Positions 30,846 through 34,340 of a stretch of DNA of 64,000 nt are shown here, in pieces. The notes under the pieces were generated by a model that was given only the letters and a program-made list of their open reading frames with translations, had not been told where the DNA came from and did not search any database. The translations under genes were made by a program, and so were the position numbers. Source of the DNA: an uncultured Parachlamydiaceae bacterium. GTDB taxonomy: Bacteria > Chlamydiota > Chlamydiia > Chlamydiales > Parachlamydiaceae. The DNA lies in assembly GCA_963752155.1 (NCBI GenBank), contig CAVVXH010000005.1:1-64000 (forward strand), given 5' to 3'. How positions within the stretch are numbered: position 1 is the first letter of the stretch; every line of letters starts with the position of its first letter.

Positions 30846-31922
<1,077 letters not shown>

Positions 31923-32190: not shown

Positions 32191-33418
32191 TTAAGAGGCT
32201 GAAGTTTGCTTGGTAAAGTTTTCAAAGATCTGTTTTCCTGATAACGTCCGTATACAGGCTCCTGTAGGACATGTACGCAAAACAGGACAACGATTCGTAA
32301 AAGAACGCCCATAAGGACAAGCTCCTTGAAAAAAGCGATGTTGCTCTCCAACAGGAGCAAATCTAAGCCCTAATGATGCGCCAAAAATGCTAAAGGTCGA
32401 AGTTGTCGTTGTCGCAGCAAGGTGCAAGGGAAGGGAATCCATTGCCACAATCAAATCTACCATCCCCATAAGTTGCTGCAATACAGGCAGACTCACCCTT
32501 GGCAACAAAAGAGATTGCTCAAATTGACTCTGAAGAGACTGAACTTCAATTTTTTCTGTTTCTGTACCCCAAATGAATACAAAATAACAGTTAAGATGCC
32601 CTTGAAGCAAATTTAAGAACTCAACCAACGCCTGGGGGGTCAATTGCTTATTTTTCCAATTAGAACCATGACAAACCATCACCAATGGCAAATTTACTCC
32701 GACTAACCTTTCACAAATATTTTCTAGCTGAACCTGTTCATCTCCAGATAAATTGAATATGACCGGAGAGGCCCTCTGAGGCTCATGATTGTTAAACCTA
32801 GAAACGGCAGTTGAAGACGATAAATTGACGCAATCTTTTGAGCCATAATCGCTTCTGATGGGGGGCGCCTTCACCTTTTGGGAATGATCGGCCCCCATCA
32901 GCAAGCGATTCTAACTCAAAATCTTGCATCACTTTATCATCTTGAACTGCCGTTTCTAGGTTAAAATACCCTTGGACTAGATCCAAGTAAGAACTACAGA
33001 CGTTTTGATGAATAGAAGTTGAAAATCGTTTATTTGTAAAAAGCACATTGGGCCATTCAGAAACGCTATCCTTTGAAAATCCAACTTTATCACCACCTCT
33101 TGCTATTGCTGTGACCAAACCCGATTTAACATTACCTTGCAAATCGAAAATCACATCGTAACGCTTTTGACGAAGATGTTTTATAAATTGCCACATTTCT
33201 GATCGCAAAGAAAAATGAAATAGCTTCTTTCGCCAGGCCTTTGTATCTATAATAATCGTTTGATTCACTGACGGATGCGCCAAGAGAAGCGATGAAAATG
33301 ACTTCTCTACTACCCAATCGATGCACGCGTTCGGAAACTTTTTCTTGATATATCCTAAAACAGGAAAAGCATGGACAATATCTCCTAAAGCAGAAGTCTT
33401 TACAATCAGTATCTTCAT
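32191..33418 (-). CDS. waaC: GT9 lipopolysaccharide heptosyltransferase I-like, interrupted by a palindromic insert and a 1-nt frameshift
   Basis: MKILIVKTSALGDIVH, IDWVVE, YDVIFDLQGNVKS, then HGSNWKNKQL, VAMDSLPLHLAA. Confidence 0.8.
32796..32961. mobile_element. 166-bp palindromic element inserted in the waaC coding sequence, TAA target duplication
   Basis: Arms ACCTAGAAACGGCAGTTGAAGACGATAAA... / ...TTTATCATCTTGAACTGCCGTTTCTAGGT, with TAA at 32793-32795 and 32962-32964. Confidence 0.85.
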
Positions 33419-34340
33419 TTATTGGACCTATCGTTGGAGATGGATCAACAAAAAGAGATTTTGTATCGAGAGCCTGAATAAAATCAACCGGCAACGCAGA
33501 TTCCACACACACATTTTTCCCACTAACAGGATGGGTGAACTCTATTTTACTAGCATGTAATAAACATCTCTTCGGCTGATAGTCAATAGATTTGCCCCTA
33601 TGGTAAAGGGAATCCCCTAAAATGGGATACCCCATTCCTGCCAAATGAACTCGGATCTGATGCGTACGTCCGGTATGAGGATAGCAAGCTAATAAACTTG
33701 CTACTTCTCCTTTTCTAACAACTTCCCATTCTGTAATAGCTAAAGCCCCCTTTTCTTTTGCTACCTCACCCCAGAGATTCTGACCAACATAAGTTGTCGT
33801 TTTTCCCAAATAATTTATTATTCGTCCTTTTGACTCTTTGGGGATCCCTTGCACAATGGCAAAATAACTCTTTAAGATTTTTCGATTTTTAAATAACCGA
33901 GAAATGGCTTCTTTTGCCTCTTCCGATTTGATAAAAATCAACACACCAGATGTCTCTTTGTCGAGGCGATGAGCAAGCTCTAAATATGTTAAAGATCTTT
34001 TGCTTTTAAGATCTTCCAATAAGCCTGTATCTTCAGAATTCACCCCTGCAGCTTTATCGATGATCAGAAAATCATCATCTTCGTATAAAATAGGAGATAA
34101 AAATTTTCTAGAAGTGGAAACTTGAGGGGGTCTATAAATAAATTCAACAACATCCCCACGACCCACTAGAGTTGAAGCAAAACGTTCAGCACGTCCGTTG
34201 ACAAAACAAAGATTTCTTTCCAAAGATTGCTTCAAAAAACGAAGGGAACACTTTTCTTCTAACTTACTACGCAAGAACTGTAACAATCGCATCCCAGATT
34301 CTTCCCTGGTCACTTGCCATTGTTTAGAAAAACTAGTCAT
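33132..34340 (-). CDS. RluA-family pseudouridine synthase with S4-like domain; the 3' extension over waaC is suspect
   Basis: ILYEDDDFLIIDKAAG, AHRLDKETSG, TGRTHQIRVH, PILGDSLY, LLHA; homology ends near 33460. Confidence 0.88.
   Translation of the reverse strand: MTSFSKQWQVTREESGMRLLQFLRSKLEEKCSLRFLKQSLERNLCFVNGRAERFASTLVGRGDVVEFIYRPPQVSTSRKFLSPILYEDDDFLIIDKAAGVNSEDTGLLEDLKSKRSLTYLELAHRLDKETSGVLIFIKSEEAKEAISRLFKNRKILKSYFAIVQGIPKESKGRIINYLGKTTTYVGQNLWGEVAKEKGALAITEWEVVRKGEVASLLACYPHTGRTHQIRVHLAGMGYPILGDSLYHRGKSIDYQPKRCLLHASKIEFTHPVSGKNVCVESALPVDFIQALDTKSLFVDPSPTIGPINEDTDCKDFCFRRYCPCFSCFRIYQEKVSERVHRLGSREVIFIASLGASVSESNDYYRYKGLAKEAISFFFAIRNVAIYKTSSSKALRCDFRFAR

Follow-up and report, generated by a model that had tools for sequence, protein, structure and literature searches.

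What interrupts the waaC-like gene of this uncultured Parachlamydiaceae bacterium, and is the interruption a native part of the gene or a mobile element able to settle in coding sequences? In the window, the whole stretch of 64,000 nucleotides analysed here, a GT9 gene is cut by a hairpin into open reading frames (ORFs) of 206 and 237 amino acids. An earlier note on this DNA had likened the hairpin to the palindromic elements of Rickettsia (RPE). RPE-1 to RPE-3 are described as palindromic inserts lying in frame in unrelated genes and in exposed regions of the proteins, some of them expressed (PMC10969869, PMC3767692, PMC3733652). The evolutionary weight of such insertions is left unexplored in the account of PMC10969869, where similar mechanisms in other prokaryotes are only suggested.

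The insertion in waaC

Both halves of the interrupted gene score best with the NCBIfam model of heptosyltransferase I, at 138 and 50 bits against a cut-off of 185, so that waaC is a fair label and the earlier placing of the element between two halves of a GT9 heptosyltransferase holds (Table 1). The source genome has a second GT9 gene with an open frame of 364 amino acids. The arms of the hairpin are imperfect, as first noticed: outer arms of 63 nt each (32792-32854 and 32903-32965) match at 84%, and inner arms of 13 nt lie between them (32855-32867 and 32889-32901). Folded as single-stranded DNA the hairpin reaches -60.5 kcal/mol (z -14.95), a stability attained by none of 200 shuffled sequences. 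A search of Rfam gave no matches at E up to 1, and no sigma-70-like promoter was found in 32700-33050.

Of 40 genomes of the family, 36 have a waaC orthologue; among good-quality genomes all 23 of those counted have one. The insertion site, a variable linker between two domains, is empty in all nine orthologues that were aligned, as the earlier reading of an inserted element would have it. The opposite reading of the insert as a native linker is rejected, since the aligned orthologues do not contain the element. Directly downstream of waaC (window 30846-31922, minus strand) is encoded a protein of 358 amino acids with collagen triple-helix repeats.

Table 1. Features of the waaC locus in window coordinates
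Feature	Position	Strand	Basis or remark
waaC-like GT9 heptosyltransferase, C-terminal half	32191..32791	-	domain and NCBIfam models, orthologue alignment
left 5-bp target-site duplication, TTAAA	32792..32796	+	
element core, non-autonomous palindromic MITE	32797..32960	no strand	164 bp in the window, 163 bp in six sisters
16-bp terminal inverted repeat	32797..32812	+	15/16 in common with IS1380-like elements
mirrored, weaker IHF-like match	32831-32843	other strand	
G6 run	32860..32865	+	length as in sisters, not the error
central loop with CACC motif	32871..32887	+	conserved across phyla
extra base, the frame offset	32902	+	missing in all six 163-bp sisters
IHF-like site	32914..32926	+	fixed position 117 of the 163-bp form; window coordinates read from the sequence
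16-bp terminal inverted repeat, other end	32945..32960	-	peptide frame enters here
right 5-bp target-site duplication, TTAAA	32961..32965	+	
waaC-like GT9 heptosyltransferase, N-terminal half	32966..33418	-	domain and NCBIfam models, orthologue alignment
upstream RluA-type pseudouridine synthase	33132..34340	-	overruns waaC by 287 nt

Structure and distribution of the element

The source genome holds nine full copies of the element with 94-98% identity, one internally deleted form of 61 bp and a few partial ends. In a set of 106 unique copies, drawn from the source genome and its relatives, 92 are flanked by identical pentamers and 101 have a core that starts with CC and ends with GG, the termini reading CCTAG...CTAGG. 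The terminal inverted repeats are 16 bp long and the insertion target is W-T-N-A-W. The boundaries first drawn, 166 bp between TAA duplications, had to be moved: the core spans 32797-32960, the duplication is TTAAA, and the outer A and T of the wider version belong to the target. A length of 163 bp is found in 115 of 162 unique elements, collected with search patterns that permitted 150-178 bp, and together with the 5-bp duplication it amounts to 168 bp, or 56 codons. Eighteen representatives align without gaps over 163 columns, and in 31 of 50 predicted pairs both partners have changed. An IHF-like motif, identified by the IHF consensus, occupies one fixed position in 21 of 25 lineage representatives, against 3.5 in shuffled sequences. 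With its terminal inverted repeats, target duplication, empty orthologous site, small size, multiple copies and no transposase of its own, the element is a genuine MITE.

BLAST detects the element in 13 of 60 relatives and in neither of two genomes of the same genus, and the end pattern is matched in 10 of 401 genomes across the phylum, among them G023 with 121 matches, G148 with 23 and the nearly complete G192 with 17. A scan of GTDB gives at least 116 loci with the element. The titles among the matches listed comprise Chlamydiae, Parachlamydiaceae, Gammaproteobacteria, Nitrospirae, Magnetococcales, Rickettsiales, Verrucomicrobiae, Burkholderiales and Bryobacterales; if these MAG titles are taken as given, the same ends appear to be present in several other phyla. 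Five loci (L178, L180, L185, L195 and L234) bear the MAG titles Chlamydia trachomatis and Klebsiella pneumoniae, and are probably mislabelled environmental bins. Plasmids and viral contigs yielded no match to the element. The closest elements and the protein names point to a chlamydial source genome as well.

Copies in genes of the source genome

Six of the nine full copies lie in reading frames, all six in the same phase and orientation. The copies in a TPR protein (internal) and in an RND adaptor (near the start) are intact. In a PHP protein the copy sits at the start codon, and the duplication restores a start codon behind the element; the insert peptide may therefore not be made. At L026 (G000:C10:627808, G000 being the source genome) an ATGAT target lies on the start codon and ATG is regenerated behind the element. 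N-terminal insertions of this kind may be regulatory rather than coding.

The copies in waaC, in a Hsp70/DUF3731 protein and in an ABC ATPase are off by one base. Compared with all six 163-bp sisters, the window copy carries one additional C, at 32902, and a G instead of C at 32891, and waaC is frameshifted as assembled, which makes this locus alone a weak example. Both the G6 run and the one-base frame offset of the earlier note are present, but its repair of the frame by G5 is wrong, because the sisters also have six bases at this run; the base in excess is the C at 32902. The insert peptide as written there runs partly out of frame in comparison with the in-frame sister peptides.

We consider the extra base somewhat likelier to be an assembly error than real decay. 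Reads of one sequencing run cover the window in scattered low-depth pieces, none of which spans the insertion site. The assembly has four clean frameshifts among 58 orthologous ORFs (63.6 kb). Breaks were seen in nine ORFs; four of these were inspected, and five, with many stops or with stops but lacking a clean split, were discounted as probable shadow frames or poor alignments. The upstream rluA ends between -49 and +20 nt relative to waaC at 12 orthologous loci, as against an overrun of 287 nt in the window; the overrun probably reflects a second indel of one base close to the 3' end of rluA. Real decay is nevertheless a possibility, because three of six coding copies in the source genome are off by one base (~1 kb), where about 0.06 would be expected from the background. 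In the largest element family elsewhere, none of 16 open-phase ORF copies is broken. Under the explanation we favour, the window copy would have entered waaC in the open phase, and the extra base would be secondary.

The source genome contains an inverted duplication of several genes (L030, G000:C7:9000-18000), one copy of which is fragmented by frameshifts; each of its arms holds the 61-bp internally deleted element, and the whole looks like a fold-back assembly artefact. In another copy (L021 3015-3180, G000:C1) a part of one arm has turned into the mirror of the other with one base added, which suggests template switching, either in vivo or in assembly.

Phase of insertion and avoidance of stop codons

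Each end of the 163-bp core contains CTAG, which, as read from the sequence, produces a stop in two of the three phases, so that a single phase is left open. ORFs of at least 200 codons hold 38 of 116 chlamydial copies; 33 of the 38 use the open phase, against 37% expected from the target sites of the source genome only, and 29 are intact. Closed phases account for 5 of the 116 copies, against 42% of target sites. The copies are related and were not randomly sampled, and the tiny p-values of these comparisons overstate the case because kin are not independent. The count sets aside 16 of 162 elements with short flanks, and its 15-codon margin omits two near-start copies of the source genome. 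In a held-out set of 18 further copies, five lie in long ORFs, three in frame and two out of frame. Outside chlamydiae, 7 of 30 copies are found in long ORFs and 1 of 30 is intact.

In the interiors of 23 representatives the open phase has 33 stops and the two other phases have 140 and 123. Shuffled sequences have 115 in the open phase (minimum 80 in 1000 shuffles), and pair-preserving shuffles 107. The deficit is also seen in six non-chlamydial representatives (13 against 33), only two of which are fully open, and it spans lineages whose interiors share as little as 25-27% peptide identity. In the largest family sampled, either orientation is open. Closed subfamilies have multiplied too, a 162-bp family to 11 copies and a stop-bearing 163-bp family to four. 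In the peptide frame pN/pS is 0.73, compared with 0.72-0.86 in five control frames, and by this measure no peptide-level selection is seen. Judged from these sequences, selection for an open frame is well supported, and we read the pattern as stop avoidance that would not involve a protein function of the peptide.

Host proteins and the encoded peptide

A profile of nine peptides recovers 293 longer database proteins that carry the peptide; these hosts are gene predictions, many from a single contig. The best 120 of the 293 include three from the source genome itself, and among their number are ATP synthase gamma (AtpG), methionyl-tRNA formyltransferase (Fmt), LpxK, peptide deformylase, a MurG-type protein (by Pfam), RecB, SucA, HemC and MenD. 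The same 120 proteins contain 131 inserts (95 internal, 29 near the N-terminus and 7 near the C-terminus), with multiple inserts in ten. The near-N-terminal inserts may be untranslated where a downstream start is used. Three proteins (P0001, P0002 and P0007) have two or three tandem copies of the peptide head to tail within a single ORF, as could result from a further insertion into the regenerated target or from unequal recombination.

A span of 54 residues, LETAV...TAVSR, is found in all 77 pattern matches, and the peptide matches no Pfam or NCBIfam model. Predicted on its own, it forms a single helix (residues 3-24) and coil, with pLDDT 56.5 and pTM 0.16; on these values a folded mini-domain is rejected. 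Two other GT9 proteins, P0085 and P0111, also carry an insert, each at its own site within the corresponding linker or immediately behind it; the first is intact at 404 amino acids, and the second stops just past the insert. In the model of P0085 both host domains are near pLDDT 90 and the insert is below 50, the alignment being without depth there.

A candidate transposase

Genes with PF13701 occur in three of five genomes searched; the source genome has none. In G021 and G023, which carry elements themselves, such genes (L143 and L144, over the cut-off) are accompanied by a single element end that matches at 13 and 15 of 16 bases, respectively, and target-type pentamers adjoin the matching ends. 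A search of the phylum finds relatives in 7 of 251 genomes. One locus, L149, is a complete IS of 1717 bp with a 540-aa frame and both ends matching the element; its flanks are both target-like and not identical to each other. The match covers 15 of 16 bases in L149, as in L144 and L154-L156. For all four transposases tested the best model is NF033539 (IS1380), at 100-158 bits against an NCBIfam cut-off of 180. Ends of the IS1380 family start with CC, as do those of the element. By these likenesses the mobiliser would be an IS1380-like transposase acting in trans.

An autonomous IS with the same ends, for which the earlier note advised a search, is represented by L149, but not in the source genome, where long elements with these ends amount to two loose pairs, one of them the C7 inverted duplication. 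A matching transposase was found neither in the source genome, which is 80% complete, or in G027, nor in the element-bearing genomes G192, G148, G016, G012 and G019; PF13701 genes of G049 lack the element's ends. Past the first 16 bp, similarity between IS ends and element arms is hardly above that of shuffles (18 comparisons; best 4/200, most 17 or more), and derivation of the interior from the IS ends, as in an IS1380 derivative, was not seen. In G023 (L274, C28) an IS1380-like transposase with a matching end has lost its front part and adjoins ORFs that resemble another transposon, presumably IS66-like.

Discussion

As a whole, the observations are probably best explained by a non-autonomous MITE that depends for its movement on an IS1380-like DDE transposase acting in trans and inserts in a frame-safe manner. 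The enzyme would bind the 16-bp ends, insert the element at W-T-N-A-W and duplicate 5 bp. The interior appears to be kept mostly stop-free in one phase, so that an open-phase insertion would add a mostly unstructured loop of 56 residues. Such insertions would often spare the gene and others would be purged, as the phase statistics suggest on the supposition that the loops are translated. A peptide without a function of its own would then act as camouflage, favoured by selection on the element. The symmetry of the hairpin and the IHF-like sites are probably of use in transposition. A stronger proposal, of 'coding-stealth' MITEs across phyla in which length and open phase are selected, which still move by an IS1380-like transposase and whose loops are translated in working essential proteins, is tentative, and we incline slightly against it. 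If true, the family would amount to linker scanning carried out in nature, and to an element like the RPEs whose mechanism of spread is open to reconstitution.

An ordinary MITE might produce much of the same picture if its 163 bp were set by DNA geometry, through end spacing and IHF bending, its open frame were an inherited accident and its in-frame hosts were mostly dead or dying genes. The fixed positions of IHF-like sites and the gapless alignment with its two-sided pair changes are in line with this, as are the single intact copy in genes among 30 outside chlamydiae, the breakage of half of the coding copies in the source genome and the lack of peptide-level selection. We nevertheless regard it as unlikely, given stop depletion even between lineages that have diverged so far as peptides and intact inserts in the housekeeping proteins AtpG, Fmt, LpxK, MurG and peptide deformylase; nor is a length of 163 bp mechanically required, since the 162-bp family also moves. 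Removal of the insert in expression, by ribosome bypass between duplicated codons, RNA processing or frequent precise excision, would leave insert-free proteins. A very stable hairpin that joins the duplicated ends and G-U-type mismatches favouring the peptide strand in 18 of 24 representatives would suit such removal, yet the bias is opposite in the other six, the lineages are related, and phase would be irrelevant, contrary to the strong under-representation of closed-phase insertions and the avoidance of stops; this explanation is very improbable.

We give scarcely any credence to the mobiliser named in the earlier note, an IS5/Harbinger-like enzyme that targets TAA or TWA, combined with a G5/G6 homopolymer error. 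IS5/PIF-Harbinger elements make a 3-bp TWA duplication, and 96 of 106 copies do have a 3-bp TNA repeat if the wider boundaries are used; trimming one base per end off the 166-bp version, however, converts it to the 5-bp repeat of 92 copies, of which the triplet is the middle. The duplication is accordingly 5 bp long, its centre can also be TCA or TGA, and the supposed terminal base follows the target. The ends match those of IS1380-like genes, and the sisters keep G6.

The preferred reading, a MITE moved by an IS1380-like transposase, can be set beside several known systems. This genuine MITE family behaves like the RPEs, with boundaries and a candidate transposase other than those first proposed. 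The analogy drawn in the earlier note is upheld by a multi-copy palindrome in frame in many unrelated proteins with empty orthologues. As RPE-1 to RPE-3 are described, both are palindromic, about 150 bp long, dispersed and in frame in unrelated housekeeping genes, with one conserved peptide and, as far as can be judged for the present element and its host, tolerant insertion regions and an intracellular lifestyle. We know of no mobiliser for RPE-1. The present element differs in its clear 16-bp terminal inverted repeats, 5-bp duplication, candidate transposase and occurrence of the same ends in other phyla. Its ends are CC...GG, whereas R. conorii RPEs are reported with a CGTC tag, and it is young and of patchy occurrence (10 of 401 genomes in its phylum), whereas RPEs are described as fixed across a genus. 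There is no sign of kinship, the peptide having no Pfam or NCBIfam match and the ends being different, in a comparison with RPEs by description only.

With the IS1380 family the element shares an AT-rich 5-bp duplication, such as is reported for ISEcp1 (PMC2887853), and the transposases beside the same ends score best with IS1380 models. It differs in having no transposase; the partner proteins are 540 amino acids long and under the NCBIfam cut-off, and the W-T-N-A-W target is strict. Intragenic or ORF-fused bacterial MITEs are known from accounts of BRE, ERIC/YPAL, BOX and QMITE1/2 (PMC3184786, PMC5896051, PMC10969869), which are likewise described with terminal inverted repeats, duplications, stable stem-loops, IHF-like sites and some in-frame fusions. 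Set against these descriptions, the present element is a fixed unit of 56 codons, inserted internally and in frame in hundreds of cases and avoiding stops to a measurable degree. It also differs in both length and duplication from QMITE1 (300-400 bp, 2-3 nt) and QMITE2 (150-190 bp, 7-11 nt), as these are reported. A search by titles and abstract openings found no publication that describes the element; subscription papers, ISfinder and supplements lie outside this search, and its unpublished status is thus unproven.

A young family with a target rule, a candidate enzyme and hundreds of sites makes spread, tolerance and selection for frame safety testable. Its insertion sites show which places in core enzymes tolerate 56 additional residues, and the peptide leads to mis-annotation of chlamydial proteomes.

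Two distant variants, of 166 bp (L198 1501-1666) and 154 bp (L248), lie in open frames, and each makes a multiple of three together with the 5-bp duplication.
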